Assembly: GCA_035516155.1 (NCBI GenBank) | Contig: DATJAP010000011.1 | Location: 38,288 to 102,287 of the forward strand | Direction: 5' to 3' | Source of the DNA: Nitrospirota bacterium | Lineage (GTDB): Bacteria > Nitrospirota > UBA9217 | Length of the DNA stretch: 64,000 bases | Part shown: piece by piece, positions 29,011 to 64,000 of the stretch | How positions within the stretch are numbered: the first letter of the stretch is position 1 | Layout: every line of letters starts with the position of its first letter | The notes under the pieces: model-generated | Database searches by the model: none | Seen by the model: only the letters and a program-made list of their open reading frames with translations | What the model was told of the DNA's origin: nothing | Program-made: the position numbers and the translations under genes

Positions 29011-29172
29011 TATTCAGCAGCTCAAACTTATATTCGATCTGCTCGCGTCAAATGCCCCCTTCTCCAACATCCTGCACCATGAGGGAAGGCAAACATCTGT
29101 ATCGGAGGAACTTCTGCGAGTCTGGAAGAAATAACGGAGAGACAGTGTCTAGAGGGGACAATACGCCTGAAG

Positions 29173-29212
29173 CATTACATGAATATTGAAATAAGGTTAA
29201 AATTCCGTTAAA
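29173..29212 (+). promoter_or_regulatory. Weak 11-bp-phased array CATTACA / TATTGAA / GGTTAAA / CGTTAAA
   Basis: Four NNTTAMA heptamers start at 29173, 29184, 29195 and 29206, exactly 11 bp apart, in a 450-bp AT-rich non-coding stretch. Confidence 0.25.
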
Positions 29213-29800: not shown

Positions 29801-31135
29801 AAAATTCTCCTTTCTTAAACACCGATTATACAGAGGGAAGTTGATTATGTCCAGGTTCATTATGCCGTAACGACATACCAACCACTATGAACAATCGTAA
29901 CAAAAGAAAGATAGTGCAAGCATCGTAAAGACCCCGCCGACAACTACCACGATTAAGCCGCCAGTTTTTCCCCGACCGAACTCTCTTCGGTCAACTTGAG
30001 CTATGTCGGAAAATGCGGCGCTTTCTTTTTAAATGATGATCCATGGATCCGTGATTTCTTTCACTTCGGAATCCAGTACTTTGTTATCTTTCATGACGAT
30101 AGGAATATTATCTCCATGTCGAGCGGTACCGGCAATCACTCCGGAATTAAGCGTCACCGTCGTAACGTCGTTCATCCGGGCGCAAGAGTAACACGCAAAG
30201 CCGGGATCAGAATAATTTGAATCGTTTAGTAGAATTAACCCATCTTGTTCCGCAAAACTTTTTGGTTCTTGCGAGACTTGCTCTACGGAGTTTATCTAAT
30301 GTAAATATTACTGAAGAAATACAGCCGACGTTAGCCATTATCTTTACGTATAATCTATGCCTTTTCCCACGCGTTATCAAGAATATATTTCGGATGGACT
30401 AAACGTCACTAGTAAATCTATTAAACTGCAGCTCTTATCCTGATTCTATGGTTAACGATATCACAGTGGTGTTGCGGCAGATCGATGGCAACCGATGCCC
30501 GTTCTTGTGATCAAGGTATGAACTGTGTCCATAAATCGGATGACAAAGGGCCAATGATCTTTGGGCCCGGCTCTAAGTAGGGATACTTTGACGAGGGAAT
30601 ATCCTTGATTGAGAGAAAGATCTAAAATTGCGACGAATGAGGAACCCTTTACTCTAATTGTTGTTGACGGCGCTTTTATCCGTAGCCAGAGAGCTGATTA
30701 CATCAGCTTTGAAAACAATACCGTCTATATAATAATAAGAAAACGGTGTCGGACTTCACTGTTCGCCATGAAACCATTCACTGGAGTGCCAATGTGGGAA
30801 ATGAGGCTCACGGATCCGAATTATTTATCGCCTGAGCTTCTTACTGAATCATCCCTTCCTCAGGTGTTGCCGGAATATCTTTTATCGTGTAGAAATCGGA
30901 CGTGTAAATGGGTGGATAATGCAGAGGGAAGGGGAAGCCATCGGCTTTGCAGATACAGCGATTCGCCATGCAATATTGAGAGTCTTGGACAGGCGGCACA
31001 GCAAATCACGTGCTCGTGAAATTGAAAAACAGGATAGAGATTGCCATGAAGAGGTAAAATGAAATAGTCAGGAAGAGCTCAAGGCAAGCTGTCTGACTTT
31101 AAGAATCCCGGTGAAATCCGCGAGCAACCTTTTCC

Positions 31136-31398: not shown

Positions 31399-32256
31399 TC
31401 ATCTGCTCTTTATCACCCGCCCGGGAGACCGCTTCATAGTTGTCAGCGGGAGTGTGATCTCGACGATTGTTCCTTCTCCAGTCCTGCTGGACGCAGTGAT
31501 GTTGCCGCCCAGCGCGTTGACCAGATTTTTGACAATCCGGAGGCCCAGGCCGGGAGTATCTTGTTCCTGCACTTCAGAATCGTGCGTGTGATCGGAGACG
31601 TCGAATAGTTCCTTGACCTGTTCCTGAGTCATTCCTCTGCCGTTGTCCGCGACGGTCATCCGGAGGAGGTCGTCTTCCTTGCAGAGAATTATGGCCACGC
31701 GGCCCCGGTCGGTGAATTTAACCGCATTGCTCATAAGCTCTGTCATAATCCGGCTTATCATGGCGGGGTCGGATTCAATGACAAGTGGAGTTGCGGCGGA
31801 GACGTCCATAATGGTTAACGGTTTGTTGCCGGCCAGTCTACGCCCCGTCTGTGAAACTTCATCCAGAAGCGTTACGATGTCGAATTGTTCATATGCTGGT
31901 TCGGGAGGCTCCATCTCGATCCTCGCAAGATCAACGATATTGGAAATGACCGCGGAAAGGTTTGTGGCATCTCCTATGAGAAGCGAAAGCCTTTCCTGAA
32001 CGCTTTTGAGCTCTCCTTTCTGGTATGCCACTCGTACGAGCTCTGCCATGCCGAGAAGTTCGTAGAGCGCAGAGCCTGCGTCGCGTGTCGCCCGTGAGAC
32101 CTCGGGCGAGTGTGCACGAAGGTGGCCCGCGTTACCCCTGTGGCCGGGAGCACAAGATGCGTTTTGCGTCGGAGAGTGCAAAGCTTCGAGGACCGCCGGC
32201 ATGCATTGCAAAACGGTTTTTCTAGAGTAAGTTGAGGGACTCTGTGTCGGCTTCAT
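31399..32256 (-). CDS. Soluble histidine kinase (DHp + HATPase_c) without an obvious sensor domain
   Basis: The ATG at 32256 has an AAAGGAGAAACC RBS. N box is ELMSNAVKFT, G1 is DNGRGM, G2 is GLGLRIVKNL. The DHp region LYELLGMAELV is recognisable but the canonical SHExRTP H-box is not. The nearest His is in RAHSPEV. Confidence 0.8.
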   Translation of the reverse strand: MKPTQSPSTYSRKTVLQCMPAVLEALHSPTQNASCAPGHRGNAGHLRAHSPEVSRATRDAGSALYELLGMAELVRVAYQKGELKSVQERLSLLIGDATNLSAVISNIVDLARIEMEPPEPAYEQFDIVTLLDEVSQTGRRLAGNKPLTIMDVSAATPLVIESDPAMISRIMTELMSNAVKFTDRGRVAIILCKEDDLLRMTVADNGRGMTQEQVKELFDVSDHTHDSEVQEQDTPGLGLRIVKNLVNALGGNITASSRTGEGTIVEITLPLTTMKRSPGRVIKSR

Positions 32257-32288
32257 GGTTTCTCCTTTATGGCGATTAGTGCCGGAAG

Positions 32289-33422
32289 TCAATCAGCATT
32301 GCTTTCGCCGGGGAAATATCCGCTACCTCTCATGGTTAAAGTATCATTGTCAGGACTAAACCTTTCCATTTTCATCATCTGTTCAGCAGTTGTCCGTCGG
32401 TTAAGCACAAGCAACAGTATTGAGGCGAGGAATAGCAAAAAGTAAAATGTAAGAAAGCGCCAGCCGGCGGTCACGATTACGATAGCATCTGCCGGCAATA
32501 AAGAACGATAGGTAAGGTAGAAGATGGCCTCGGCGCCGCCCGTCCCTCCGGGTGAAGGAATGAATGCCACGAGTGCAAAGACAACAACCTGAAGTGCCAT
32601 GAACAGCAGCGGTTGGGACGGAATGCCGAGGCCCATCAGCAGCAAAGAGATAATTGAGTACCTGCATAACCACTGAACAGTCGTTAACGTCATGGTCAGT
32701 GCAAAAAATTTTTTTCCGGTACGGATGATGGCGTGGTAGGTACCGATAAAATTGCGATACGAGGAAATGAGCCGAACTGTTATGCTCCGCACGGCGGGAA
32801 ACAGCCTGTTTATCCCTTCCGATTGAAACAGGAGCAGGAAAAAGGCTGACAGGACGGCGACCGCTATTCCCGCCGCGGGCAGCCAGAAATGAGCGTGCCT
32901 CAGTGCGCTCAATCCGTTTTTCACGACCGGAAGGTTCCATGCTGACGAAAGAGTGAGCGTGACCGGCACCATGACGAGAAAAAAAAGGGCGTCCTCAAAA
33001 TTTTCCAGTAGTGTAAGCGAAAAGGCGGTGCCGGCGGAAAATTCCCGCTTCATCAGCAGTCCGATTTTTACCGGGCATCCGCCGATGAACGGCGGAGAGA
33101 CCGCCGCTCCGAGTTCGGCGCCGAGCACTATTTTGAATATGTCGCGATAGCGTATTTTCCCACCGAGAAATTTACCCCAGAGGAACAGTCGGAGCGAACC
33201 GGTGAACCAGGGCACGATGCTCAGGAGCAGGGCGACGGCCAGATATCCTGGCTTAACGCGTAAGGCAGCATGGAACGTCTCCCGGTCGACGGCCATAAGA
33301 CAAAATAAGACGTTCCCAATGACCCCGAGTGGTATGAGAAAGAACAGTTTGCCGAACAACCTTTCTGCCCCTGTTGTCGGGCGGGGGTGTTTTTCGCTTG
33401 TGAGGTTAGGCGCAGGTCGCAT
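32289..33422 (-). CDS. UPF0104 / lysyl-phosphatidylglycerol-synthase TM-region (MprF flippase-like) membrane protein
   Basis: About 8 TM helices. Family-typical start: LFGKLFFLIPLGVIGNVLFCLMAVDRETF...LLLSIVPWFTGSLRLFLW. It overlaps the upstream acyltransferase stop by 17 nt. Confidence 0.7.
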   Translation of the reverse strand: MRPAPNLTSEKHPRPTTGAERLFGKLFFLIPLGVIGNVLFCLMAVDRETFHAALRVKPGYLAVALLLSIVPWFTGSLRLFLWGKFLGGKIRYRDIFKIVLGAELGAAVSPPFIGGCPVKIGLLMKREFSAGTAFSLTLLENFEDALFFLVMVPVTLTLSSAWNLPVVKNGLSALRHAHFWLPAAGIAVAVLSAFFLLLFQSEGINRLFPAVRSITVRLISSYRNFIGTYHAIIRTGKKFFALTMTLTTVQWLCRYSIISLLLMGLGIPSQPLLFMALQVVVFALVAFIPSPGGTGGAEAIFYLTYRSLLPADAIVIVTAGWRFLTFYFLLFLASILLLVLNRRTTAEQMMKMERFSPDNDTLTMRGSGYFPGESNAD

Positions 33423-35247
33423 AGCGGTCGCGCTTTAACGCTTCATGATACGTCAGGAAGAGTTCGGCGCCTTCCTTGCCCATATACCGGTCCAGCATCC
33501 TGTGCTCCGTCTTGGTGAGGTCGACTATGATCAGACCATCGAGCACGTTTCCGAAAGCCGGATCAACATTGAACCCGGCGATCCTGCCGCCGAGCTTGAG
33601 GTATTGTTTCAGGAGTATCGGGATTCCCTTATTGTCCGATTCGATGGAGGATATCAATTCCGATATGTCCTCGATGTCGTCTTTGATGATCCTGACAGCG
33701 GCATCGACATCCCATCCTCTGAGCGATTTTGACTTAAGCGGCTTTCTGGCCTTTACCAATCCAGCCATATCATCCCGATACCGTGACATTTTTAAAAATT
33801 TGACGATCAGCTCTTTCGACAATGCCTGGTAGCCGTCGGTAATGCTGACAGGACCGAACAGTGTCTTGTAGTGGGGATTGTCTACAATGAACCGGCCAAT
33901 GCCTTTCCAGAGGAGCAGCAGCGGCGCATAGGACTTCTGGTATTCGAGACGGATGAAGGAGCGGCCCATTTCGAGTGAGGGACCGAGACGTTCGATAAAT
34001 TCAGGCTTATACCGGAAGAGGGTACTGGTGTAGAGACCCTTGAGACCGTATTTTTTAACGAGTTCGTCGGTTCTCCCGAGACGGTAGGCACCGACCACTT
34101 CCTGCTTCGCCCGGTTCCAGATGAACAGGTGGATATAGGTGCGGTCGAAGCGGTCAATATCCACCAGTTTCCCCGTCCCTTCGCCGACCGCGCGGAAGGT
34201 AATTTCGCGCAATCGTCCGATTTCCAGCACGATATTCGGGATCTGATCGGCCATGGCCTGTATTACGAACTGATCTCCGCTCTCAACCAGGGTTTGGCTC
34301 GGAGCAAGCCTGCGGAGTTCTTCGAGCATCATGTCAGGATTGCGGGGTGGCATAATGGCATTACCCGGGTCTTCTTTTTTTATCTGCAGGGAGGATGTAA
34401 AGCCACGGTATGCCTTACGGATTTGGCGAAGTTCCAGAAGATAGGTGCGTAACCTGAGATACTCCGACATGTCAGGGTCCTGCTCAAACGTCTTCAATCT
34501 ATCAAAGGGAATGAGGTCCCCGATGCGGAGCTGGATATTTTTGCGTCCTTTGTTGAGCAATTCGGCCGGCAGCATAGCCGTTCTGAGGAGAGGATGAACC
34601 ATTCCCGCCATGTGGAAGACCGCGCTGTTCGTGCCATGGAAAAATATGGGAAGCACTGGCGCCCCGGTTTTCCGGATGACCCCGGCAACAGTGGGGCTCC
34701 ACGTCGGGTCGGTTATTGTGCCTTTCTGGATATCGAAATGAGACACCGTGCCGGCGGGGAAGACAACGAGCATTCCGCCGTTCCTGACCCACTGGATGCT
34801 TTCCCGGAGCGGCTTGATATTTTCCTTCATCGCATGCTCCTGCTTGAAGGGATTCACCGGGATGAGCAGATCGCGCATTTCCGGAATTGCGGTAAGAAGG
34901 TGGTTTGCCATGAACTTTACATCGCAGCGAATCGATCGAAAGAGCGATGCTAAAATAATACCTTCAATGCCTCCGAAAGGGTGGTTTGCAACGACAATTA
35001 CGGGACCAGACGGTATCATAATTTTTGAAAGGTCCTTGTCGCTGAGATCATAGTTTACCTTCAGCTGTTCTAGGACCTTATCCGTGAATGGGCGGTTATC
35101 CGCCATCCGGGCGACGTCAGCGTATGCCTGGTTCAGCCGAGGAAAAGCGAGAACATGTTCAAGGGGACCCTTTACCATGGTGAAGAGCTTGTTCTGGAGA
35201 GGGTCGTTGAACTTAATGTCAAGGTTGAAAATACGGTCGTTGGTCAT
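33406..35247 (-). CDS. Bifunctional OlsF-like aminolipid synthase: N-terminal PlsC-type O-acyltransferase plus C-terminal OlsB/GNAT-type N-acyltransferase
   Basis: - N-terminal VIVVANHPFGGIEGIILASL and FPAGTVSH (lysophospholipid acyltransferase blocks).
- C-terminal FRAVGEGTGKLVDIDRFDRTYIHLFIWNRAKQEVVGAYRLGR...GLYTSTLF, typical of OlsB/hemolysin-like GNAT N-acyl amino acid synthases.
- The domain order is the same as described for OlsF. Confidence 0.75.
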   Translation of the reverse strand: MTNDRIFNLDIKFNDPLQNKLFTMVKGPLEHVLAFPRLNQAYADVARMADNRPFTDKVLEQLKVNYDLSDKDLSKIMIPSGPVIVVANHPFGGIEGIILASLFRSIRCDVKFMANHLLTAIPEMRDLLIPVNPFKQEHAMKENIKPLRESIQWVRNGGMLVVFPAGTVSHFDIQKGTITDPTWSPTVAGVIRKTGAPVLPIFFHGTNSAVFHMAGMVHPLLRTAMLPAELLNKGRKNIQLRIGDLIPFDRLKTFEQDPDMSEYLRLRTYLLELRQIRKAYRGFTSSLQIKKEDPGNAIMPPRNPDMMLEELRRLAPSQTLVESGDQFVIQAMADQIPNIVLEIGRLREITFRAVGEGTGKLVDIDRFDRTYIHLFIWNRAKQEVVGAYRLGRTDELVKKYGLKGLYTSTLFRYKPEFIERLGPSLEMGRSFIRLEYQKSYAPLLLLWKGIGRFIVDNPHYKTLFGPVSITDGYQALSKELIVKFLKMSRYRDDMAGLVKARKPLKSKSLRGWDVDAAVRIIKDDIEDISELISSIESDNKGIPILLKQYLKLGGRIAGFNVDPAFGNVLDGLIIVDLTKTEHRMLDRYMGKEGAELFLTYHEALKRDRYATCA

Positions 35248-35366
35248 GAGATCTCCTTACTTATTATGAATAGAGTCCAAAGTTCGGCGCTAAAGTTCAG
35301 AGTAAAATCAGGGGCAGGGGTTCACTCTCAAAACTTTGAACGCTGAACTCTGCACTTTTTTGCGAT

Positions 35367-36605
35367 CTACGCTACCTTTTCCCGTATTCTGTCCGTGATG
35401 CGGTAACCCCATGACCAGAATCCGGTCTCGGGGCAGGGCAACAAACAGGAGTCTTTCCCGATACGGTACCGGTTTCCGCGCCAAATCACGGTTGAACTTA
35501 TGAAGGGTACGAACCAAATTACGCCGATGATGAGGTCCTTGATCGGCGCTAGGAAATAGACGAACGGGGATTGTTTCTCTAACGTACTGTTACCCTCCCG
35601 CGACTCTAGGGTCCTGCCGATTATCGAATCACCGAGGATTTTGATAAGTCCTACAAGGGCTGTGAACGATAATGTGGTCCGTGAAAAACCTGACGCCAGG
35701 TTCGGGATCGCAGAGATAAAAACAGGGTTTGCAAGGAGCTCCGAGAAGTACTTATATCCGCCAATTTTCCATCTGAGTTTGCCCCATCGCGTGTGACGGT
35801 TCAGAAACCGCTTGATGCTCCAGAACTCATTAACATTGCTGACCAGGTGGTGGGAGAGGACCACTTTTTTCCCCGCCCGGGACATTTCCCTTCCGATTAT
35901 AAAATCCTCAGCCAAAATATCCTTGAAATTTTCGAGCCCGCCCAGCATGTTCAAGTCGTCCTTTTTCATGAGCATGGATTTACCGATGACGCAGGGCATA
36001 TTGAGGAAACGGTCGAGAAAACTGACGCTGCCGATAATAAAAGAGTTCAGATGAAGATTTTCAAACCGGGCGCCAATAGTGCGGCCGCCGATGCCTTTGA
36101 TCAGGTTGCTCACCAGCCCGACAGCCGGGTCCTCTGTATGACGCATGATTTCACGCAGATAGTTTTTTTCAACCATCACATTGCTGTCACTGATCAGGAT
36201 GTAAGGATGACGGGACCTCCGGTATGCAGGAACGAGATTGTTGATCTTGGGATTGAGCCCTGTTGCGCACCGCTCCACGATGATCGTGATATTTCTTTCC
36301 GGGTGTTTTTCCTGAATCTTTTTCGCTATTTTGTATGCGGGATCATTGTGGTCCTGGAGGGACAGCAGCAGCTCGTATTCGGGATAGTCCTGGGTGCAAA
36401 AGCTGGAAAGATTGTCGAAGAGATTATCGTCGAGCCCACGCAGGGGTTTGAGGATTGAGACGGGAGCTAATGCGTCGCTCGCGCAGTCCGATGCGATGGC
36501 AGCCCGGCCGTTCTTCCTGATGAGGTAACAGGCCGCTCCCGTCTGGAGTAGGTAAAGAACGATGCCTACGGCACAGATCGTTGCACAGAGGATAAAGGTA
36601 ATCAT
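35367..36605 (-). CDS. Membrane GT2/GT21-like glycosyltransferase (ceramide-glucosyltransferase-like)
   Basis: VSILKPLRGLDDNLFDNLSSFCTQDYPEYELLLSL, ISDSNV (DxD-like) and NRHTRWGKLRW ((Q/R)xxRW). N- and C-terminal TM helices. Confidence 0.75.
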   Translation of the reverse strand: MITFILCATICAVGIVLYLLQTGAACYLIRKNGRAAIASDCASDALAPVSILKPLRGLDDNLFDNLSSFCTQDYPEYELLLSLQDHNDPAYKIAKKIQEKHPERNITIIVERCATGLNPKINNLVPAYRRSRHPYILISDSNVMVEKNYLREIMRHTEDPAVGLVSNLIKGIGGRTIGARFENLHLNSFIIGSVSFLDRFLNMPCVIGKSMLMKKDDLNMLGGLENFKDILAEDFIIGREMSRAGKKVVLSHHLVSNVNEFWSIKRFLNRHTRWGKLRWKIGGYKYFSELLANPVFISAIPNLASGFSRTTLSFTALVGLIKILGDSIIGRTLESREGNSTLEKQSPFVYFLAPIKDLIIGVIWFVPFISSTVIWRGNRYRIGKDSCLLPCPETGFWSWGYRITDRIREKVA

Positions 36606-36655
36606 AATCCGCCTCCCGAAAGGTGATACATATAAGGCTAATCAATCGTCATCAT

Positions 36656-37348
36656 TCAGTTCCTGAATAGCGTGATTGCCACTCCTTTGTTGTGTCGGAT
36701 ACAGTTTTTCACCGCATCGACGTTTTTATCGCAGTTCAGCAACGTTTTCCAGGAGTAGAGGTGCCGTGCCTTGTGAAAGTCACTGTTCGCGATGTAGGGG
36801 TATTTTTTCAGGCTGATCACATTGAACACATCGTCCCGGTTGGCAATCTCCCAAGCATCGATGTATTTCGAGTATTTATCTCGGTTGTTCCACAAAAAGA
36901 GCGTGTCGGGGTTTAAGATGTCTGGAGTATGGTGGGGATGACAGGCGATAGTCAGTGCATCCTGGCGCTTTGCGTCAAGAAAAATCTCTTCATAATCCAT
37001 ACACGCGGGGACGAATTCCTTGATGTCGAGAAGCAGGAAATGAGCGGATTCATCCTTGGAGAGGTGGTTCTTGGTGATTTCAACTCCGGGAATCACGAGC
37101 ATTTCATATTTGTCCCACGCCCGTTTCGCTTCGGTCCGTATGGTGGAAAGGTACTCGTCAAAATTGTCTCCCCGGACCGACAAGTTGAAGTGTCGCGCGA
37201 ATTTCCCCAATGTGTTGTCACCATTTACCACATGGTCCGTGATGGCAATTACGTCGAATCCCGCCTGGCCGAAAAGATCTATGGTCTTGCTCATCTCCAC
37301 TGAGCCGTCCGAAAAGGTCGTGTGAATATGAAAGTCACACAGCATCAT
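36656..37348 (-). CDS. PHP-domain metal-dependent phosphoesterase
   Basis: CDFHIHTTFSDGS, IAITDHV, ACHPHH and NSDFH match the PHP histidine/aspartate motifs. Confidence 0.8.
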   Translation of the reverse strand: MMLCDFHIHTTFSDGSVEMSKTIDLFGQAGFDVIAITDHVVNGDNTLGKFARHFNLSVRGDNFDEYLSTIRTEAKRAWDKYEMLVIPGVEITKNHLSKDESAHFLLLDIKEFVPACMDYEEIFLDAKRQDALTIACHPHHTPDILNPDTLFLWNNRDKYSKYIDAWEIANRDDVFNVISLKKYPYIANSDFHKARHLYSWKTLLNCDKNVDAVKNCIRHNKGVAITLFRN

Positions 37349-37381
37349 TGTCGAAATTATATGGGACGTCTATTACGGAGG

Positions 37382-37410
37382 TATTACGAAAATATTAAGT
37401 TCTTGTTACA
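37382..37410 (+). promoter_or_regulatory. 11-bp-phased direct repeats TATTACG / TATTAAG / TGTTACA upstream of the PHP gene
   Basis: The heptamers start at 37382, 37393 and 37404. They lie 34-66 bp upstream of the PHP start codon (37348, minus strand). Confidence 0.4.
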
Positions 37411-37454: not shown

Positions 37455-37730
37455 TCATGGTAAGTGTTTTTCTTTTTTGATCGGCATCATCGTGACGAGG
37501 TCGGCCGGCCGCCGGCATTCGAGCACGAGCGACTTGACGAGTTCCTCGATATGCTCTTGGCTGACGAATTGATCGGGGACCATGGAAAGGACAGCTTTTT
37601 TTTCACAGTGCTCATACGTTTCCCCGCCTTCGATCATGTCATAATCGACAACGGTCACCTGAACAGGTGATGTTGAAAATATTTCGGCCACAACACCGCT
37701 TTCAATTCTGATAATAATGGAATTATTCAT
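37455..37730 (-). CDS. Hypothetical small acidic protein
   Basis: The ATG at 37730 is preceded by AAGGGAGA. 91 aa with no recognised domain. It sits between the GH1 and PHP genes on the same strand. Confidence 0.35.
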   Translation of the reverse strand: MNNSIIIRIESGVVAEIFSTSPVQVTVVDYDMIEGGETYEHCEKKAVLSMVPDQFVSQEHIEELVKSLVLECRRPADLVTMMPIKKEKHLP

Positions 37731-37838
37731 ACATCTCCCTTTTTTCATAGTTGATCGGTTCGAAGAACTGGAAATCTCGATGCCGATGAGGGTAGCAAAG
37801 CATTGTTAATGTGCGATTACGTTCAGGTGAAGCTTTTC

Positions 37839-39101
37839 TTACATATGAGACCGGCTTTGGATAAGGTAGGAGTAGTAGGAGGCCGCGCTGGTCGGCGTAC
37901 GCTTGAGCGTCTTGAAGTCAACCCGGTACAGCCCGAACCGCGCATCGAGACCCTGAAGCCACTCGTAGTTGTCGATGAGGGTCCAGTAGTAATATCCCCG
38001 GATGTCGAGACCCTCCTTGAGACACCGTTCGATCACGTCAATGTGCCGCTTCATGTATTTCACTTTTTCCTCTGTATCATGCGTTGCGATGCCGTTCTCG
38101 GTGATTACGATCGGCAGGTTGAGCCGCGACGCGTATCGAAGGACCTTGGCGAGGCCGCGGGGGTGGATTTCCCATCCGAGATTCGTGAGCCCGTGTCCGT
38201 CGATGTCGAGGTGCCGGAGCTCGACTCCCATTTTTTTGAAGGGATTGAAGCGGAGGTGGATTCGGGTATAGTAATTCACGCCGAAAAAATCGAGCTTGTC
38301 CTTAATCGGAACCTCAATCTCCACCTGGCGAGAAAAAGGGAATTTGATGATGAAGATTCCTGTACGGAACGCGTTGATGATAGAGTGATTGTAAAAGTAG
38401 TTTGCCGTCTTCTTCAGAAGCCGGTCAAGAGGGTTCCATGTTTTCCAGGGAGCAAAAACAGACATGTTGTGCGCAACGCTCACTCGGGCATCAGGAATGT
38501 ATCGGTGAATGATGTCATAGGCCTTGCCGTGGGACGCAAAGATGTTTTTCAATGCAACGAGGGCGCGGGGCACATCCCGCAGTCCCGGAGGCATACATCC
38601 GTCCATATAACCGCCGATGATTATGACATAGGGTTCGTTGAATGTTATCCAGGTGCGCACATTCCTGAGAGTCGAAACCATCATTTCGGTGTACCGTAGA
38701 AATTTCTCAATGGATGCGGTCCGGTGCCAAGGTGTCCGCTCCAGAAACCAGCGCGGGTGAGTAAAGTGGTGGAGCGTAACCATCGGTTCGATGTGGTAGC
38801 TGTGAAGGATATCAATGATCTCCTGGTAGTGAGCGATCGCTTCCTCGTCCCATGTGTCGGGCCGGGGCTGAATCCTGCTCCACTCCAGGGAAAACCGGTA
38901 CGAGTTGACGCCAAGCTCCTTCAGCAGCTTGAGGTCCTCCCGGAACATGGCATAGTGGCTCGTGATCTGCGGCATGTCTCTGAGTACGGGATCCCAAACA
39001 GTCCAATCCGCATTCGGAGAACCTTCGAGTTGAAACGCCGAGGTTGCCACGCCCCACTGAAAATCCTTGGGAAAAACCTTTTCCTTCGAATGTTCCCTCA
39101 T
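37839..39101 (-). CDS. Glycoside hydrolase family 1 (beta-glucosidase-like)
   Basis: FQWGVATSAFQLEGS N-terminal signature. Acid/base ITFNEPYV. Nucleophile VITENGIA. Confidence 0.85.
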   Translation of the reverse strand: MREHSKEKVFPKDFQWGVATSAFQLEGSPNADWTVWDPVLRDMPQITSHYAMFREDLKLLKELGVNSYRFSLEWSRIQPRPDTWDEEAIAHYQEIIDILHSYHIEPMVTLHHFTHPRWFLERTPWHRTASIEKFLRYTEMMVSTLRNVRTWITFNEPYVIIIGGYMDGCMPPGLRDVPRALVALKNIFASHGKAYDIIHRYIPDARVSVAHNMSVFAPWKTWNPLDRLLKKTANYFYNHSIINAFRTGIFIIKFPFSRQVEIEVPIKDKLDFFGVNYYTRIHLRFNPFKKMGVELRHLDIDGHGLTNLGWEIHPRGLAKVLRYASRLNLPIVITENGIATHDTEEKVKYMKRHIDVIERCLKEGLDIRGYYYWTLIDNYEWLQGLDARFGLYRVDFKTLKRTPTSAASYYSYLIQSRSHM

Positions 39102-39220: not shown

Positions 39221-39646
39221 TTATCCATGATTCACCTCTTCAGCTTCGAAGGATTTCTCCGGTGAAAATACCACGGCCAGTGTCCTGATGCAGCCGATCA
39301 CGAGGATCAGGATTGCGAGAGCTAGGATCATCCCTTGTTGCAGGGTGTGTTCGTAGAGCCCAATCATGATTTCGCGGAGTACGAAAACCAGTGCGGCATC
39401 TGTAATAAAGGTTATTTTAAGACGGTGTACGGTAAAATATTCGATGATGCTTCGAAGCAACTCGATGACGACGAACAGGGAAAGAATGTTGGTCACCATC
39501 ATGTCGAAGGCCGCCGCGATGGTGCGGCTCCCGAATACGGCTCGAAGGTCAAGAATGACCCGCGCGATCCCCATTAAAAGAGCGATGATCACGAGCGGGA
39601 TCATAAATTTAATCATGGTGTCGACGATTTTCGTGAAGTATTTCAT
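39221..39646 (-). CDS. psiE: PsiE-family (phosphate-starvation-inducible) membrane protein
   Basis: 141 aa with four TM helices. The central block FVVIELLRSIIEYFTVHRLKITFITDAALVFVLREIMIG parallels E. coli PsiE (FEFIALIVKYF...LRYFVYIGITAIVRLIIV). Confidence 0.55.
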   Translation of the reverse strand: MKYFTKIVDTMIKFMIPLVIIALLMGIARVILDLRAVFGSRTIAAAFDMMVTNILSLFVVIELLRSIIEYFTVHRLKITFITDAALVFVLREIMIGLYEHTLQQGMILALAILILVIGCIRTLAVVFSPEKSFEAEEVNHG

Positions 39647-39730
39647 GGCCCCTTGCCCGACGCGTCATGGTTGGCCGCCCTGGAACTCCGTGCGCTAAAC
39701 CGCTCATGTTAGGACATACTGTCATGATTT

Positions 39731-39759
39731 CATTACACAACCGTTACCAATTTGTTACA
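39731..39759 (+). promoter_or_regulatory. 11-bp-phased direct repeats CATTACA / CGTTACC / TGTTACA
   Basis: The heptamers start at 39731, 39742 and 39753 in the psiE-like/hemerythrin divergent intergenic region. Confidence 0.45.
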
Positions 39760-39839
39760 ATTGCATGAAATTGAGGCATGTTTGAGACTTAATGGCTTAT
39801 GACTATCGCAAACATCACGGGAGTGGATTTCTTTGTTAT

Positions 39840-39857
39840 TGTAACATTTCTGTAACA
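39840..39857 (-). promoter_or_regulatory. Tandem TGTTACA-N4-TGTTACA (read on the minus strand), Pho-box-like
   Basis: The plus strand reads TGTAACATTTCTGTAACA. The minus strand reads TGTTACAGAAATGTTACA. It includes the 11-mer GAAATGTTACA that recurs at 43216 and 55564. It lies ~195-210 bp upstream of the psiE-like start. Confidence 0.5.
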
Positions 39858-40233
39858 CGGCTGTTTTACAATTACTACGGTTGCGCCATGCTGGGGACTC
39901 CTGACGCCCGGCGCATGATCTGAGCAATGCCTTTGATTTCACTTCGACGACTTCATCCGGGCATTGAAGAGATAGAGTCAAAATCTTACCAATACTTAAG
40001 ACACGGAGTGGACCGGGAAGCGCTTAATACACGAATATTTATACGCTTCCTGCGTTTTTGCTCTATCACTATTCACCACGTTTTGAATTATATTGTACCC
40101 ACTAATTTACTCGTGGTAAAATAGCAATATTGGACGCATTCCCCTAATCCGAAGGATTTTGGGAGGATGGCGAATGCGCGTATTTCAGCCGGCGCATATC
40201 AATACTATTTGCATGGAAGTTCTAAGAGGAGTT

Positions 40234-41513: not shown

Positions 41514-42224
41514 TCATTCCCCCTCGACATAGTATCCCACGCCACGCCGCGTTTTCACAAACAGGGGCCGGGCCGGGTCGTCTTCAATATGTGTCCTCAG
41601 CCTTCTGATATGGACGTCGACCGTCCTGGGTTCAACGAACGTGTCATCCTGCCACAACGCATCGAGCAACTGGTCGCGGCTGAACACCTTCCCTCTGCGT
41701 TCAACGAGATAGAGAAGGAGCCTGAACTCGGTTGAACTCAGGTTCAGCGGAACATTGTTTTTGCTTACGATGTAGCGTTCCTTGTCGATGCGTAGATTGT
41801 GGACGGTGAGGACACTTTCCTGCGTTTTCCTGCCGGCTCCTCTCCGGAGTACGGCATTTACGCGGGCAGTGAGTTCCTTGGGGCTGAACGGCTTCGTCAT
41901 GTAGTCGTCGGCACCTGTTTCGAGGCCCTGTACCCTGTCGGTTACATCGCTTTTGGCCGTCAGCATGATGATCGGCATAGATGCCGTTTTCGGATTGCTT
42001 CGAATTATGCGGCAGAGCTCGGTTCCCTGAAGGCCCGGAAGCATAAGGTCGAGAATGACAAGGCTGTATCCGCCTTTCTTGATCTTATCTAGGGCCTCCT
42101 CGCCATCGGACGCAGAGGAAACTTTGAACCCTTCCCGTGTGAGATTATAGGTGACAAGCTCCACAAGATCGGGTTCATCATCAACAACGAGTATACGTAT
42201 TGTCTGCGCAGCGGCTACGCTCAT
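41514..42224 (-). CDS. OmpR/PhoB-family response regulator (PhoB-like)
   Basis: Receiver: RILVVDDEPDLVELV...LVILDLMLPG...MLTAKSDVTDRVQGLETGADDYMTKPFSPKEL, near-identical to the PhoB signature. Winged helix: STEFRLLLYL...FVEPRTVDVHIRRLR...VKTRRGVGY. Confidence 0.85.
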   Translation of the reverse strand: MSVAAAQTIRILVVDDEPDLVELVTYNLTREGFKVSSASDGEEALDKIKKGGYSLVILDLMLPGLQGTELCRIIRSNPKTASMPIIMLTAKSDVTDRVQGLETGADDYMTKPFSPKELTARVNAVLRRGAGRKTQESVLTVHNLRIDKERYIVSKNNVPLNLSSTEFRLLLYLVERRGKVFSRDQLLDALWQDDTFVEPRTVDVHIRRLRTHIEDDPARPLFVKTRRGVGYYVEGE

Positions 42225-42267
42225 AGGGTATCCAGAACACAGGATTCAAATAATTGAGAATTCGTTA

Positions 42268-42555
42268 TTATTTTGTGGTATCTTCTTTAAGAACCTTCAG
42301 GTATGTCCTGCACCTCGGATACCGGGAACATCGGAAGCGAAGTATTGTTTGCTCATCGCGGTAGAGGTGCATCGGATTCCCGCACGCTGCGCACAACGGC
42401 CTGCCCTTTACCCTCATGCGCTGTGAAACAGTAAATTGCATGCCGCACATCAAGCAGAGATAACGTTGATTGCCTGTCCGCGCTTTCCCATCGCGGTAAA
42501 CTGTTATTGATTGACAGGCCGGACATTGGATATTTTCGATTGTGTCTTTAGACAT
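42268..42555 (-). CDS. Double zinc-ribbon protein (InsA-like N-terminal ribbon + second Cys4 ribbon), paralog of 55197-55535
   Basis: CPAC-x16-C-x2-CG-x-QF, then RPLCAACGNPMHLY...LRFRCSRYPRCRTY. It lies 43 bp upstream of the PhoB-like regulator on the same strand. Confidence 0.6.
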   Translation of the reverse strand: MSKDTIENIQCPACQSITVYRDGKARTGNQRYLCLMCGMQFTVSQRMRVKGRPLCAACGNPMHLYRDEQTILRFRCSRYPRCRTYLKVLKEDTTK

Positions 42556-42674
42556 TCTGACTACTTATACTGAGAAGTTTGTTGTATAGAACAGTTCGGT
42601 GCACGTGTGAGAAACGTGTGGATGTCAATAATGATCCCGAAATGAAGTTTTGCTGATTTCTAGGCGTCTGGCCA

Positions 42675-42905
42675 TCATCCGTGCCGCAGTCGTGCCTTAA
42701 CGCTCCGGCTGACAAGGACCGGCAGAAAGGCCCTTATCCTGGCCTCCTTTTTCAAAACATCCAAATCAGCCATATAATATTGTCGAATTTCATCGGCGGG
42801 CAGCTGAAGTTCCTGAGCGAGTTTCTGAATAGCGCGGGAATGCTGATCAACTTCCTTTTCATCACCGCGTAACAAGCCAGACGGTATTGTGGGCTTTTGA
42901 TCCAT
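42675..42905 (-). CDS. DUF3562-like small protein
   Basis: The ATG at 42905 follows an AAGAAGGAG RBS. AIQKLAQELQLPADEIRQYYMADLDVLKKEARIRAFLPVLVSRSVKARL fits the DUF3562 pattern known from sulfate reducers. Paralog at 50200. Confidence 0.55.
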   Translation of the reverse strand: MDQKPTIPSGLLRGDEKEVDQHSRAIQKLAQELQLPADEIRQYYMADLDVLKKEARIRAFLPVLVSRSVKARLRHG

Positions 42906-42974
42906 GGCGATCTCCTTCTTTCTCCGCGTCAGAGGTGGAAAGCGATAACCCCCCCCGGTGTTGCCGAGCATTTT

Positions 42975-43150: not shown

Positions 43151-43237
43151 TGTTACAGACTATTGACCGAGATATATACAAGTTCACCTTGCTCTTTCTT
43201 CGCAACTATAACGTGGAAATGTTACAGTAATATTACA
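43151..43237 (+). promoter_or_regulatory. TGTTACA elements: single at 43151, tandem TGTTACA-N4-TATTACA at 43220-43237
   Basis: The region contains ggaaatgttacagtaatattacaaat (GAAATGTTACA at 43216-43226). It lies in the divergent region between the Cys-rich/DUF3562 genes and the DUF5132-ATPase operon. Confidence 0.45.
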
Positions 43238-43586
43238 AATAGCAAAAAAATCTGTGACATGAGGAAACAGTCTGTTTACAGCATGCAAGTGGTGCTGGAA
43301 TACTGCGTAACAATCATGATACAGCGATACTTGCACGCAAAGATGGCACTCTACCGACAGTGCTATTATGACATCCGTGTATTGTATCATGGGATTCTTT
43401 ATTATCCGAATAGCTGCGGCTCCTGGTGTGGGAAATAATTACTTGCGCTCGATGACACTGTCAGTGGATAAAAAGGGTATACTTAATTTATTGTTATATT
43501 ATTGATAGTAGGCAAGTAATGAAAGTGAAAATAGACAGTGCTTCGGGAAAAGGCTACAATTTGTTCATACGAAAGGAGATCATGAT

Positions 43587-43895
43587 ATGGCACTTTTGGA
43601 CGATGGTTTGAAAGGTAATCTGGTCACAGGTCTTGCTATTGGCGTAGGAGCGGCAATATTAGCACCTGTCGTAATACCTTTGTTTGCCAATATTGCGAAA
43701 CCGTTGGCGAAAGCGGCGATCAAAGGAGGGATACAGCTTTATGAGCGCGGTAAGGAAACTTTTGCCGAGGTCGCTGAAATAACCGAGGATATTGTGGCGG
43801 AAGCAAAGGCGGAGCTGTCGGAAGCTGCTGCGGCAGCGGCGGCGCCAGCAGCGGCGGCAGTAGCGGCGCCACCGGACGAGACACACGCGTCATGA
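43587..43895 (+). CDS. DUF5132-like small membrane-anchored protein
   Basis: AAAGGAGATCATGAT RBS. N-terminal hydrophobic GxxxG-type segment GLAIGVGAAILAPVVIPLF, then AKPLAKAAIKGGIQLYERGKETFAEVAEITEDIVAEAKAEL and an Ala/Pro tail. ATGA overlap with the next gene. Confidence 0.6.
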   Translation: MALLDDGLKGNLVTGLAIGVGAAILAPVVIPLFANIAKPLAKAAIKGGIQLYERGKETFAEVAEITEDIVAEAKAELSEAAAAAAAPAAAAVAAPPDETHAS

Positions 43896-44365
43896 TACGG
43901 GATGCAGTGGTATCGCATAACTCGCGGGGAAGGTTCCGGGTAAAAATCGCCTCGTTGAAAGGTGATAGAGAGGCGATTAATGTCTGCAAGGAACAATTTA
44001 TGCGTTGCCCGGGTATCAACACGGTGGAGGTGAACGCGCTGACGGGAAGCATGCTCTTTCTGCACGAGACGAGCATGGCCGCCATTACTGAGTACGCGCG
44101 AACGAAAGATATCTTTATCTTGCGAGAGCAAGGGTCTAACCCGGGGAATTTTCACCAGAATATAACTGAAACGTTCAAAGGAATCGATAACAAAATCAAG
44201 AGCTTGACCGACGGAGAGATGAACATGGGTGGAGTGGCATTCGTCGTTCTACTGGGAGCGGGGGCCATCCAGGTTCTCAGTGGAAACGCTGGCGCGCTTC
44301 CTTGGTACGGTGCATTCTGGTACGCATTCAATATTTTTTTAAAGTCGAAGGAGCCGGAAAAGTAG
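43892..44365 (+). CDS. HMA2-like domain protein with a C-terminal hydrophobic anchor
   Basis: N-terminal GRFRVKIASLKGDREAINVCKEQFMRCPGINTVEVNALTGSMLFLHE (HMA2-like, no CxxC). C-terminal MGGVAFVVLLGAGAIQVLSGNAGALPWYGAFWYAFNIF. Confidence 0.65.
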   Translation: MIRDAVVSHNSRGRFRVKIASLKGDREAINVCKEQFMRCPGINTVEVNALTGSMLFLHETSMAAITEYARTKDIFILREQGSNPGNFHQNITETFKGIDNKIKSLTDGEMNMGGVAFVVLLGAGAIQVLSGNAGALPWYGAFWYAFNIFLKSKEPEK

Positions 44366-45303: not shown

Positions 45304-48300
45304 GTGATCCAGACCGTTCATGCCGCGGTTAAAGGGCGTGTCCGTTATAAAGTTGATGGGCTCTATCGTTCGGAATCATTGAAACAGCATATTGAGCAAG
45401 GTCTCGTTCAGCACGAAGGGATCCTAAACGTTTCCGTCAACACGCTGACGGGCTCGGTTCTCATATTGTACGATATACGGAACGGCAATGGCAATGATGC
45501 AGTTGCCGTGGCCGGACTCCTCAAAGAGATCGTCGAAAGTCACCCAGCGGGCTCCTCAGCCGGCGGGGTGGAGAGAGAGAAGAGGAGACCTCGCGCCGTC
45601 GCTGCTTCGCCCATCACGCGGAGCGATGATCCCGGGTTTGCCCGCGGTAGTACGCCTCCGGTGCATCCGCAAGCAGGAGGAAAAAATCCGAGCCTGCGAA
45701 AAGTTAGGTCGCAAGTCGTCCATGCTGAGGAACAGCCTGAAGATCTCTGGCACTGCATGACGAGGCAGGAAGTTCTGCATCAGTGGGATGCCTCCGGCTC
45801 AACAGGCCTGTCTTTGGAATCCGCTTTGAGACGTGCAGCTCAATACGGTCCAAACCTCTTGCCGGAATCGGTTCCCCGATCCGGGTGGAGCATCTTCTTC
45901 GACCAGTTCAAATCCCTTCCCGTTGGCCTTCTCGGAATAGCCGCAGGCATATCAGTCTTCACGGGTGGCATTGCCGATGCTGTCGTGATCCTCGGCGTCG
46001 TGATGATTAATGCTGCCATCGGATATACGACCGAAAGGCAGACGGAAAAAACCATTCACGGTCTTAAGAGCCTCGTCCAGCCGGTGTCAACGGTCATTCG
46101 CGGCAATGCGCTGCAGGATATCGACGCCAAAGACATCGTGCCGGGCGACCTGCTCGTTCTCAGGCCCGGCAGCTATGTTGCCGCCGACGCCCGGCTTCTG
46201 GATTTGAATTATCTCAGCGTTGATGAATCAGCGCTGACTGGCGAGAGCATGCCGGTCAATAAGACAAAAGGGAAGCTGCAGTCGCCCGATATCCCGCTTG
46301 GCGACCGGACGAACATGGTGTATATGGGCACCCTTGTCACCGGAGGTCAGGGCCTTGCCGTTGTTGTGGCGACAGGCCGCTATACGGAGATGGGGAAGAT
46401 CCAGACTCTTGTGGGAACAGCGCGTCCTCCCGACACCCCCATGGAACGGCAGATGGACAGAATGGGCATTCAACTGGTCATCATCAGCAGTGCGGTATGC
46501 GGCATCGTGTTCATCATAGGGCTGCTGCGCGGCTATGGTTTTCTCCAGATGCTTAAAACCTCCATTGCACTGGCTGTTGCCGCGGTGCCCGAGGGTCTGC
46601 CGACCATAGCCACAACAACGCTGGCACTCGGCATCAGGCGCATGCGGGAATTAAATGTTCTTATTCGTCACCTTGACGCCGTGGAGGCTCTCGGTGCCGT
46701 TCAGACCATCTGTCTTGATAAAACCGGGACCATTACCATGAATCGCATGTCGGTCGTCGAGGTTCATGCCGGCCTGCGCCGTTTTACGGTATTCGACGGC
46801 AGGATTTCCGCCGATGGTACCACCATTAATCCCTATTCCAACGACGAAATCCTCCGCCTTGTCCATCTGTCGGTCCTCTGCAATGAATCAACGGTATCGA
46901 GACAGGAAGGCGAATATTCGGTTCAGGGCTCCTCGACGGAAAATGCCCTGGTTCATATGGCGCTCGCGGTCGGCGTCGACGTTAATGCGCTCCGGTCTCA
47001 GTATTCGCTGGTCAAAATCAACCACCGTTCCGAAGACCGTCATTACATGAGCACCATTCACCGTGCTGGTGAGGGACAGGGGTTGCTGGCTCTGAAGGGA
47101 AGCCCTTCCGAAGTGCTATCGATGTGTCAATGGTATCTCAAGGACGGTGAGAGGCTTTTACTTGATGACCATGCGCGGGAATTACTGGACAAGGAAAATG
47201 AACGGATGGCCGGTGATGCGCTCCGCGTGCTCGCGGTCTGCTATGCCCTGGCCGACGAGAAGGCGCTGAACAACGGCGATGGCTTCGAAGAAGGGCTCAC
47301 CTGGGTCGGGCTGGTAGGCATGGCTGATGTCGTTCGCGCCGGTGTAAAGAACCTCATGGGGACCTTTCATCGCGCGGGGATTGATACGGTCATGATTACC
47401 GGCGACCAGGGACCGACGGCCTATGCCATAGGAAAGGAACTCAACCTCAGCAAGGACGAAGAGCTGGAAATCCTGGACTCGAGCCATCTTTCTCAGCTGG
47501 ATCCTGAAGTCATGACGGCTCTCGCGGGACGGGTCAATGTCTTCGCACGGGTGAGCCCGGCAAACAAACTCCAGATCGTGCAGGCGCTCCAGTCGGCCGG
47601 TAAGGTCGTGGCCATGACCGGAGACGGCATCAATGATGGACCGGCACTCAAAGCGGCCGATATCGGCATTGCCATGGGCCACACGGGCACCGATGTGGCG
47701 AGAGAGGTGGCAGATGTCGTACTGGAGGACGATAATCTTGAAACCATGGTGATCGCCATCAGTCAGGGCCGGACGGTTTACAACAATATCAGAAAGTCAG
47801 TCCGGTTCCTTCTTGCGACGAACATGAGCGAGATCATGGTGATGTTTACCGCGATGGCGGGAGGAATGGGACAGCCGCTAAATGTCATGCAGCTTCTCTG
47901 GATCAACCTGATTTCGGATATCTTCCCCGGACTGGCGCTGGCCCTTGAGCCGCCAGAGCCCGATATCCTGTCCCGGCCTCCGCGCAATCCGAATGAACCA
48001 ATCATCAAACCCGGGGACTTCAAACGGATCCTTTTCGAGTCATCCACCATTTCCGCCGGGTCCTTGGCGGCTTATGGTTATGGCCTCGCACGATATGGTC
48101 AGGGGGCCGAGGCGGGAAGCATGGCATTCATGAGCCTCTGTACGGGTCAGCTTTTGCACGCGATCAGCTGCCGTTCCGAAACGCACAGCATCTTCGATTC
48201 CGACCGGCTAGCAACGAACAAGTATCTTACCGTGGCCCTCGCGGGTTCCCTCAGTATCCAGACCGCAACCATGTTCGTCCCGGGCCTGCGGCGGTTCCTC

Positions 48301-49844: not shown

Positions 49845-50199
49845 TACCGGCCAGGCGAGGCGCGGATGTATGGTTGAGATGTCCTGTTGATTGAGACGTG
49901 CTATGATATAAATAGGGAGCATCAAAGACATGATAATTTGGAGCTTATCGCCGGAAAAGATTTTTCTGGTAGCAAGGGCAAGAGAAACGGATCAGGGGGT
50001 TAGAGGGAAACCTTAAGGATGATAAAATCTCTATTGCAAGGAATAGTCGGTTTTTGTGACGTATAGAGCGAAGGGTACATAGAAAAAGGGCACGAGGCGC
50101 GTTCAGGCCTCTGGTTCCGATAGTCAGTCGGAACAAGTCGCAGTGAGAGGGAGCGAGTCGCTGACGAACGGCCCCAGATGGTGGAGGAGGGAACACAGC

Positions 50200-50773: not shown

Positions 50774-50813
50774 GTTTACAGTAGTGTGACAGTTGCATTA
50801 AACTTCCATTACG
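50774..50813 (+). promoter_or_regulatory. Weaker 11-bp-phased array GTTTACA / TGTGACA / CATTAAA / CATTACG
   Basis: The heptamers start at 50774, 50785, 50796 and 50807, between the mini zinc-ribbon ORF and mgtA. Confidence 0.3.
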
Positions 50814-55545: not shown

Positions 55546-55585
55546 TATTACAACTCTATGACGGAAATGTTACAATTGTGTTACA
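55546..55585 (+). promoter_or_regulatory. Four 11-bp-phased heptamers TATTACA / TATGACG / TGTTACA / TGTTACA
   Basis: The heptamers start at 55546, 55557, 55568 and 55579. The array contains GAAATGTTACA (55564-55574). It lies immediately upstream of the zinc-ribbon/HMA2 gene pair. Confidence 0.5.
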
Positions 55586-63826: not shown

Positions 63827-64000
63827 TCACGGGATGATAATCCTGACCTTCAACCCTTTCCCTGCGTTACTCTCGATTTGCAGGTCCCATCCATGTGCCT
63901 TAACCAGATGTTTGACAATAGCAAGGCCGAGCCCCGTGCCGCCCATGTTCCGTGAACGGCCGGTGTCCACACGATAGAACCGCTCGCCAAGCCGGGGTAA
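63827..64000 (-). CDS. C-terminal end of a PhoR-like sensor histidine kinase (rest outside the window)
   Basis: The minus-strand translation [57 protein letters not shown] matches the PhoR-type G2/ATP-lid block ([21 protein letters not shown]). Confidence 0.7.

Follow-up and report, generated by a model that had tools for sequence, protein, structure and literature searches.

Phased TGTAACA-N4 arrays in an uncultured Nitrospirota bacterium as probable Pho boxes of PhoB-activated promoters

Introduction

In the phoB promoter of Escherichia coli the Pho box region reads TTTTCAT aaat CTGTCAT aaatctgacg CATAAT, which in the register adopted here is TGTCATA-aatctgacg-CATAAT. We describe seven arrays of TGTAACA-like heptamers, repeated with an 11-bp period, in 64,000 nucleotides of DNA from an uncultured Nitrospirota bacterium (GenBank assembly GCA_035516155.1, contig DATJAP010000011.1, positions 38,288 to 102,287 of the forward strand; this whole stretch is called the window). 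Judged from their sequence and gene context, the arrays very probably are Pho boxes, that is, operators of class II phosphate-starvation promoters activated by PhoB.

Related boxes are known from several lineages. The PhoP box of Bacillus subtilis is built of TT(A/T/C)ACA repeats with a period of ~11 bp, four tandem units occupying about -60 to -20 on the coding strand of the promoters that PhoP activates, and the architecture of B. subtilis PhoR includes an extracytoplasmic domain. The box of Desulfovibrio vulgaris PhoB (DVU1083), defined by DNA-affinity-purified chip (DAP-chip) and electrophoretic mobility shift assay (EMSA), consists of (c/t)GTnAC repeats (PMC3333781), and a validated por site of the same organism, AGGTTACAGCATAGTTAC, carries GTTAC at an 11-bp period (PMC6456213). 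In D. alaskensis, OlsF and glycolipid genes matter under phosphate limitation (PMC5193443). The WalR/VicR consensus TGTWAH-N5-TGTWAH, refined in Streptococcus mutans to TGTWAHA-N4-TGTWAHA (PMC4168254), belongs to a system, WalRK, described from Firmicutes (PMC9210968). Literature searches for TGTTACA together with Pho box returned no papers, and those for Pho box with Nitrospirota returned no relevant paper pairing the two in the library searched.

Results

Repeat arrays and their statistics

A comparison with coding and random sequence, the check named in an initial annotation of this DNA, was run on the window; shuffles did not match the heptamer pairs, and the word was far denser in non-coding DNA. 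The two strands together hold 13 exact copies of TGTTACA (4.0 ± 2.0 expected), a count reached by none of 100 dinucleotide-preserving shuffles. The DNA marked as non-coding amounts to 8.8 kb (13.7%) of the window and holds nine strand-collapsed copies of TGTAACA/TGTTACA, where an order-1 Markov model of that same non-coding DNA predicts 0.75 (p = 1e-7). With four copies in 55 kb of coding DNA, the non-coding density is ~14-fold higher, and among all heptamers in non-coding DNA only the low-complexity ATATATA is more over-represented.

Pairs of heptamers matching at 12 or more of 14 positions were found seven times at a spacing of 11 bp and four times each at 22 and 33 bp, against zero to two at every other spacing between 7 and 33 bp. 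In 200 dinucleotide-preserving shuffles the number of 11-bp pairs averaged 0.2 and never exceeded 2. As in a Pho box, the units are thus direct repeats of a conserved 6-7-bp core with a period of 11 bp, one helical turn. A unit matrix trained independently, on related contigs only and with no unit taken from the window, returned the seven array regions as the seven best three-unit matches in the window, at 20.3-29.7 bits; the best match in each of 50 shuffles averaged 11.6 bits, with a maximum of 20.8 bits. Both arrays that had been rated as weaker in the initial annotation (29173-29212 and 50774-50813) are among these seven. Every heptamer it listed was recovered at its coordinate, as were the three copies of the 11-mer GAAATGTTACA, and all of its arrays are present. 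Two units in phase with them had been overlooked, TATTACG at 37371 and TGTCATG at 39720, so that the lipid-operon and psiE arrays have four units each.

Where the nitroreductase and phoR genes converge, an isolated pair, TGCAACG gact TGTAACA, occupies 63724-63741. Its matrix score does not rise above noise (8.2 bits), no -10 hexamer accompanies it, and four contigs from the same organism carry it unchanged.

Orientation and promoter geometry

Because the core is nearly palindromic (TGT-W-ACA), its functional strand must come from context. Pairs of TGTAACA-like units followed by TAnnnT were found six times at a gap of 9 nt and zero to three times at any other gap from 0 to 20 nt (shuffle mean 0.23), and the gap to the putative -10 hexamer is 9 nt at six of the array sites and 8 nt at psiE. 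The relatives-trained matrix gave 20-30 bits in the gene-directed orientation and 7-17 bits in the opposite one, and all seven arrays face a gene. The arrays had initially been read as TGTTACA; their functional strand is instead the complement, with TGTAACA-N4 running towards the gene, since TAnnnT stands at 9 nt only there. The reading with TGTTACA towards transcription was rejected because its only regular TAnnnT spacing (gap 7) comes from a TACA(A)T that is part of the following repeat unit, and a rightward TGTTACA orientation would leave the lipid-operon and 55546 arrays facing the 3' ends of convergent genes. Given the gene-directed orientation, the predicted psiE and hemerythrin-side promoters stand back to back and diverge instead of facing each other.

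Read along the direction of transcription, the units share the consensus (T/C)(G/T)TAA(C/T)A followed by a 4-nt A/T-leaning spacer (YKTAAYA-N4), and two to four units follow each other head to tail in each array. By this geometry, the arrays stand where the -35 element of the predicted promoters would be, at a fixed distance from the -10 hexamer and oriented with transcription, which is the placement expected of a Pho box. A further candidate site at 30465 (minus strand, gap 10) was dropped, having weak cores and no clear gene.

Conservation in related contigs and metagenomes

Ten related contigs (L205-L214) were compared with the window, together with L005, which is derived from GTDB. PHP proteins of the relatives are 76-88% identical to that of the window and annotated Nitrospirota, and homologues that share 76-100% identity with the PHP, DUF5132 and hemerythrin proteins carry annotations as Nitrospirota, Dissulfurispiraceae or Thermodesulfovibrionales. 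An array with the same orientation and the same 9-nt gap to a -10 hexamer stands upstream of pstS in four of the contigs (L205, L206, L207 and L214, the last with two arrays). Arrays of this geometry also precede the PHP lipid operon in L206, L207, L210, L212 and L213; psiE in L206, L210 and L213, with one upstream of a 56-aa open reading frame (ORF) at the psiE position in L212; DUF3562 in L206 and L213, with one at the same position in L212; the zinc-ribbon/HMA_2 pair in L208; and hybrid kinase genes in L206 and L207. The phoB-phoR genes of L205 and L005 have a pair, TGTTACA-tttc-TGTTAAA, with a different geometry, placed further upstream at ~40 nt from a separate -35/-10 pair. Repeats are therefore found upstream of core Pho genes, psiE in the window and pstS and phoB in relatives. 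When the regulator was used to scan GTDB genomes, the nearest species representatives (Nitrospirota metagenome-assembled genomes) were only 67% and 61% identical, and synteny was lost; L005 was informative and L006 was not.

Metagenomes were scanned for three perfect TGTWACA-N4 units, and the first ORF in the TGTAACA direction was inspected. Such triples are common, the matches listed covering at least 120 loci. Among the first ORFs of the matches listed, PBP_like_2 (the PstS family) led the Pfam families with 3/48; the set is heterogeneous, and the scan speaks for Pho boxes through this PstS-family enrichment only. Other neighbours among the matches listed were NlpC/P60-LysM genes (two) and integrases (three, on the opposite side). 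The perfect triples upstream of NlpC/P60-LysM genes, in loci L104 and L203, are probably WalR-type sites, and those beside tyrosine integrases are perhaps arm-type sites. Perfect triples also occur as 11- or 33-bp satellites in L091, L112, L161, L164 and L201.

PhoB-like regulators and PhoR-like kinase

The window regulator (41514-42224, minus strand) carries the Pfam domains Response_reg and Trans_reg_C and adjoins no kinase. Contig L001, from the same organism, extends the window rightwards and contains a second PhoB-like gene (L001:12448-13152, 234 aa), whose product is 82% identical to the first and which is co-transcribed with a PhoR/PnpS-like kinase. The PhoR-like tail noticed at the end of the window is real, being the end of this 586-aa kinase gene, which the second PhoB-like gene precedes. 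The kinase has sCache_like, PAS, HisKA and HATPase domains, an architecture that resembles that of WalK. Its top NCBIfam models are PnpS (373 bits) and PhoR (285 bits), both below cutoff. The regulator initially annotated as PhoB-like is indeed so; it proves, however, to be an orphan paralogue that itself stands under a predicted Pho box, with the kinase-paired copy just outside the window. L212 and L213 both retain the orphan copy.

Both regulators match PhoB (TIGR02154) better than any other NCBIfam model, the window copy scoring 264.3 bits and the kinase-paired copy 265.9 bits. The window copy combines a receiver with a winged helix, as PhoB does, and both copies share the recognition helix RTVDVHIRRLR, which is identical to that of E. 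coli PhoB; the window regulator is 43% identical to E. coli PhoB overall. Among solved structures it matches RegX3 best, a phosphate regulator of mycobacteria. Scores for the WalR/WalK families fall below their NCBIfam cutoffs (YycF, 240 and 234 bits with a cutoff of 340; WalK, 321 bits with a cutoff of 725).

Predicted target genes

The arrays, their putative -10 hexamers and the genes they face are collected in Table 1.

Table 1. Repeat arrays, putative -10 hexamers and associated genes in the window. Scores are those of the relatives-trained matrix.
Feature	Positions	Strand	Sequence or basis
psiE promoter array, four units	39720..39759	-	TGTAACA aatt GGTAACG gttg TGTAATG aaat CATGACA; 22.7 bits
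Putative psiE -10 hexamer TAACAT	39706..39711	-	8 nt past last unit; geometry only
psiE-like gene (phosphate-starvation-inducible E family)	39221..39646	-	Pfam PF06146, E = 4.7e-10
Rightward-promoter array, two perfect units	39840..39857	+	TGTAACA tttc TGTAACA, plus degenerate TGTTTTA at 39862; 24.7 bits
Putative rightward -10 hexamer TACAAT	39867..39872	+	9 nt past last unit; same TACAAT in L213, L212
Lipid-remodelling operon array, four units	37371..37410	-	TGTAACA agaa CTTAATA tttt CGTAATA cctc CGTAATA; 27.0 bits
Lipid-operon -10 hexamer, perfect TATAAT	37356..37361	-	9 nt past last unit, 7 nt ahead of PHP ATG at 37348
Target operon for phosphate-free membrane lipids	31399..37348	-	Pfam, NCBIfam matches; same gene order in L205-L207
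DUF3562/zinc-ribbon/PhoB-paralogue operon array	43220..43237	-	TGTAATA ttac TGTAACA, 9 nt, then TATAGT (43205-43210); 22.2 bits
DUF3562 operon	41514..42971	-	DUF3562 (42675-42971), zinc-ribbon protein (42268-42555), orphan PhoB-like response regulator (41514-42224); Pfam
39-aa zinc-ribbon ORF array, four units	50774..50813	-	CGTAATG gaag TTTAATG caac TGTCACA ctac TGTAAAC, 9 nt, TATTTT (50759-50764); 20.3 bits
Zinc-ribbon/HMA_2 array, four units	55546..55585	-	TGTAACA caat TGTAACA tttc CGTCATA gagt TGTAATA, 9 nt, TATGAT (55531-55536); 29.7 bits
Degenerate four-unit array	29173..29212	-	TTTAACG gaat TTTAACC ttat TTCAATA ttca TGTAATG, 9 nt, TATTGT (29158-29163); 25.1 bits
PhoR-like histidine kinase, 3' end	63827..64000	-	Remainder and upstream second PhoB-like gene beyond window, in L001

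At psiE, transcription is predicted to start near 39699, ~53 nt ahead of the ATG at 39646. Further starts are predicted at about 37349 for the lipid operon, 43198 for the DUF3562 operon, 50752 for the 39-aa ORF and 55524 for the zinc-ribbon/HMA_2 pair. The gene leads a run in which it is followed by a GH1 glycosidase gene (37839-39101) and a conserved gene of ~92 aa (37455-37748), in an order that is the same in L206, L207 and L210. Beyond this run, the lipid operon encodes a PHP phosphoesterase, an HpnI-like GT2 glycosyltransferase, an OlsF-like ornithine-lipid synthase, an LPG_synthase_TM protein and an HATPase_c protein. Its mRNA is predicted to be leaderless because the PHP start codon follows the TATAAT so closely, and this ATG lies 7-8 nt past the -10 hexamer in five relatives as well (L206, L207, L210, L212 and L213). 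The initial annotation had proposed the lipid-remodelling operon as a member of the regulon and pointed to the psiE-like gene next to one array; both are likely targets, their arrays being conserved in relatives.

In the opposite direction a start is predicted near 39879, from which transcription would read to a 65-aa ORF (39927-40124) and then to a bacteriohemerythrin gene (ATG at 40234, ORF to 40641), the start of which is set by the homologue P0241 (135 aa, 100% identity). The 65-aa ORF had no family match, and in the leader as a whole (39879-40233) neither an Rfam family nor a terminator-like site was found. The array is kept upstream of the hemerythrin gene in L213, where the distance between the two is only ~125 nt, and in degenerate form in L212. 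In L214 (positions 2727-4408) the bacteriohemerythrin gene is divergent from pstSCAB and adjoins phoB-phoR, an arrangement that supports a functional tie of this hemerythrin to phosphate starvation. In L205-L207 the lipid operon is followed at a few kilobases by the pst operon and, taken with the position of the hemerythrin gene in L214, this makes the cluster a phosphate island in this lineage.

The array at 43220-43237 had been assigned to the DUF5132-ATPase module. Since its functional reading is on the complementary strand, it serves the minus-strand DUF3562 operon instead, and a lone TGTAACA (43151-43157) falls within the predicted leader of that operon. The DUF5132-HMA_2-ATPase-MetK operon was rejected as a target, there being no plus-strand array at 43240-43587. 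Among the DUF5132 loci of relatives, those of L209 and L211 have no array, and that of L210 has only a noise-level pair (12.6 bits), which is not followed by a -10 hexamer after 9 nt. The operon itself, in the order DUF5132, HMA_2, a protein of ~250 aa, ATPase and MetK, is conserved in relatives, and a cation-efflux (CDF) gene comes next in L209-L211.

The suggestion that mgtA might be a target was likewise not borne out, because the array at 50774-50813 faces away from it, towards a 39-aa ORF; mgtA was rejected, with no plus-strand array at 50814-51130. The ORF lies directly downstream of the array (50553-50672, minus strand), below the 80-aa threshold of the ORF list, and encodes MDPRYRVEFVCPNCNKSYQITCPEVVELCSCGAELQRAS, in which two CxxC pairs resemble a zinc ribbon. 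The ORF has a GGAGG ribosome-binding site and matches no Pfam family.

The best matrix match in the window, at 55546-55585, faces a zinc-ribbon gene (ATG at 55502, running to 55197) and an HMA_2 gene (54845-55306). This pair, another of the targets first proposed, is a likely one, a similar array being conserved at such a pair in L208. Four HMA_2 (PF19991) domains occur within 26 kb (29459-29881, 43892-44365, 45304-45480 and 54845-55306), three in small proteins and one as the N-terminus of a 1058-aa Ca-type P-type ATPase.

Other features of the window

A scan of the whole window at Rfam gathering thresholds gave no match, so that no known riboswitch is present in the long leaders, that of mgtA included. 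A plus-strand ORF of 104 aa (50143-50457) matches DUF3562 weakly (E = 2.9e-4) and overlaps a minus-strand ORF of 165 aa (49945-50442) that has no match; the former may be the real gene in place of the latter and, if so, would be a second DUF3562 copy in the window. The plus strand of positions 1-27160 holds an exopolysaccharide or PEP-CTERM-type export cluster (GT2, Wzy_C, NTP_transferase, exosortase EpsH with DUF3485, GT4 and a large TPR protein), which is unrelated to the arrays.

Discussion

The DNA word points to a regulator of the PhoB/PhoP/WalR type, and the gene context (pstS, psiE and the genes for phosphate-free lipids) points to a Pho box. The initial proposal of OmpR/PhoB-type tandem sites that define a Pho regulon is accordingly the most likely one, given the pstS arrays of four relatives, the PhoB recognition helix and the match to the D. 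vulgaris box. Several observations weigh against it. The link to pstS comes from the contigs of relatives and not from the pst operon of this organism, and no array precedes the phoB-phoR operon that holds the kinase-paired copy in this organism, though relatives L005 and L205 have one. Expression of the hemerythrin gene from its array would need a leader of ~355 nt (39879-40233), and no gene stands out as the target of the 29173 site, the nearest candidate being a 65-aa ORF at 28813-29010. As the three closest psiE-hemerythrin spacers are 75% identical overall, their conservation is weak evidence alone and cannot be used as a footprint. Both regulators score below the PhoB equivalog cutoff of 296.2 bits, and the DNA-binding domain taken by itself has its nearest solved relatives by sequence in VicR, YycF and WalR. 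Finally, the DNA word alone cannot name the regulator, because the VicR consensus TGTWAHA-N4-TGTWAHA (PMC4168254) is of the same motif class.

The last two points favour a different regulator, WalR/VicR-like or another member of the OmpR family, that answers a signal other than phosphate (envelope stress, or Mg or Zn stress) and has its phosphate-related neighbours by coincidence. Among NCBIfam models YycF ranks second, and the kinase is also WalK-like; several targets look metal-related (HMA_2, zinc ribbons), mgtA and a P-type ATPase lie nearby, and the metagenome triples upstream of NlpC/P60-LysM genes are in front of typical WalR targets. We nevertheless consider such a regulator unlikely. 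Four related contigs have an array ahead of pstS, and both the window and its relatives have arrays ahead of psiE and the genes for phosphate-free lipids, whereas WalR belongs to a cell-wall system whose usual targets are autolysins; no cell-wall hydrolase gene, as a WalR regulon would include, was found next to an array in the window or relatives, and walHIJ-like genes were absent from the kinase-paired regulator locus (L001). No array faces mgtA or the ATPase operon. PhoB is the top model for both regulators, and their helix reads HIRRLR, as in PhoB, and not TVRRLR, as in WalR. WalRK is, moreover, the Firmicutes system mentioned above (PMC9210968). The likeness to the WalR/VicR system lies in motif class, period, nearest solved DNA-binding domains and kinase architecture.

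It is very unlikely that the sites, although bound by PhoB, act mainly as repressor sites or roadblocks, or that the rightward TGTTACA orientation gives rise to crossing or antisense transcripts, the adjacent genes in either case not being activated. The near-palindromic heptamer does leave the strand not obvious, and the phoB pair of L005 and L205 does read TGTTACA towards the gene, but the fixed 9-nt gap to the -10 hexamer holds only with TGTAACA towards the gene, at six sites in the window and most sites of the relatives. The opposite reading meets its TAnnnT in the next repeat unit itself and turns two arrays towards the 3' ends of convergent genes. To chance, AT-rich intergenic composition or the remnant of a short dispersed repeat without regulatory role we attach next to no credence, since, even with intergenic DNA AT-richer than coding DNA, a fortuitous-looking pair at 63724-63741 and the same triple word in metagenome satellites and beside integrases, it is contradicted by the strict phasing at 11, 22 or 33 bp, the fixed -10 gap, the matrix ranking, the enrichment against a model of non-coding DNA itself and arrays kept at orthologous genes in contigs with differing flanks.

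With the arrays taken as Pho boxes, we infer PhoB binding, the choice of regulator, the roles of the paralogues and activation by phosphate limitation as parts of the following scheme. Under phosphate scarcity the PhoR-like kinase would phosphorylate the PhoB-like regulator or regulators, and each regulator dimer would then occupy two neighbouring units in head-to-tail arrangement, in place of a -35 element. The bound regulator would recruit RNA polymerase via region 4 of sigma-70, as at E. coli pho promoters. Likely targets would be the psiE/GH1/~92-aa gene run, the PHP/GT2/OlsF lipid operon, read as a leaderless message, a transcript towards the bacteriohemerythrin gene, the DUF3562/zinc-ribbon/PhoB-paralogue operon and two zinc-ribbon units, one of them followed by HMA_2. 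A Pho box on the PhoB-paralogue operon would give positive feedback via a duplicated regulator gene.

A more tentative suggestion, possible rather than probable, is that the Pho regulon has been rewired in two ways in this lineage, through feedback by the duplicated orphan phoB and through a starvation-induced zinc-ribbon module, with or without HMA_2, and perhaps the bacteriohemerythrin. Counting the one in the PhoB-paralogue operon, at least three zinc-ribbon copies in the window stand under a predicted Pho box of their own. If real, the rewiring would hint at an undescribed link of phosphate limitation to metal or redox handling.

The regulatory architecture itself is the textbook type of two-component promoter and is already known; the interest is modest and lies in the target list (DUF3562, zinc-ribbon/HMA_2 modules, hemerythrin and a lipid operon predicted to be leaderless), the orphan PhoB paralogue under a predicted Pho box and the uncultured Nitrospirota lineage. 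For this lineage of wetland and peat metagenomes the arrays provide a sequence-level definition of the Pho box and a partial Pho regulon, and they attach a testable condition, phosphate starvation, to families without an assigned role (DUF3562, HMA_2, small zinc-ribbon proteins and a bacteriohemerythrin). They also support PhoB control of lipid remodelling (ornithine lipid plus glycolipid) beyond Proteobacteria and Desulfobacterota. Caution is advised in that TGTWACA-N4 is common to PhoB-like and WalR-like regulators.

Compared with the B. subtilis PhoP box, many Nitrospirota units are TTTAACA or CTTAATA and so contain TTAACA or TTAATA; position 2 is, however, mostly G (TGTAACA), and the host is not a Firmicute. 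The E. coli Pho box shares with the present arrays the 7-bp core plus 4-bp spacer, the 11-bp period and the head-to-tail units that replace the -35 element. Its TGTCATA agrees with TGTAACA at 5/7 positions, and the gap to -10 is 9 nt in both (E. coli phoB). At position 4 the Nitrospirota core has A where E. coli has C, and at position 6 it has C where E. coli has T. The Nitrospirota spacers are T-leaning (TTTC) where those of E. coli are A-rich, and the Nitrospirota regulator shares just 43% identity with E. coli PhoB and falls short of the equivalog cutoff. To our knowledge E. coli PhoR has no extracytoplasmic sCache-like domain, unlike the Nitrospirota kinase. In D. vulgaris, the sites have two units and the por site is not at -35 (the por operon has a sigma-54 promoter), whereas the Nitrospirota arrays show class II geometry and contain as many as four units; the lineages (Desulfobacterota and Nitrospirota) and the target sets also differ. 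The word and period of the D. vulgaris PhoB box are nonetheless essentially those found here, in an anaerobic, non-enteric lineage in which the box likewise stands upstream of pstSCA and phoB.

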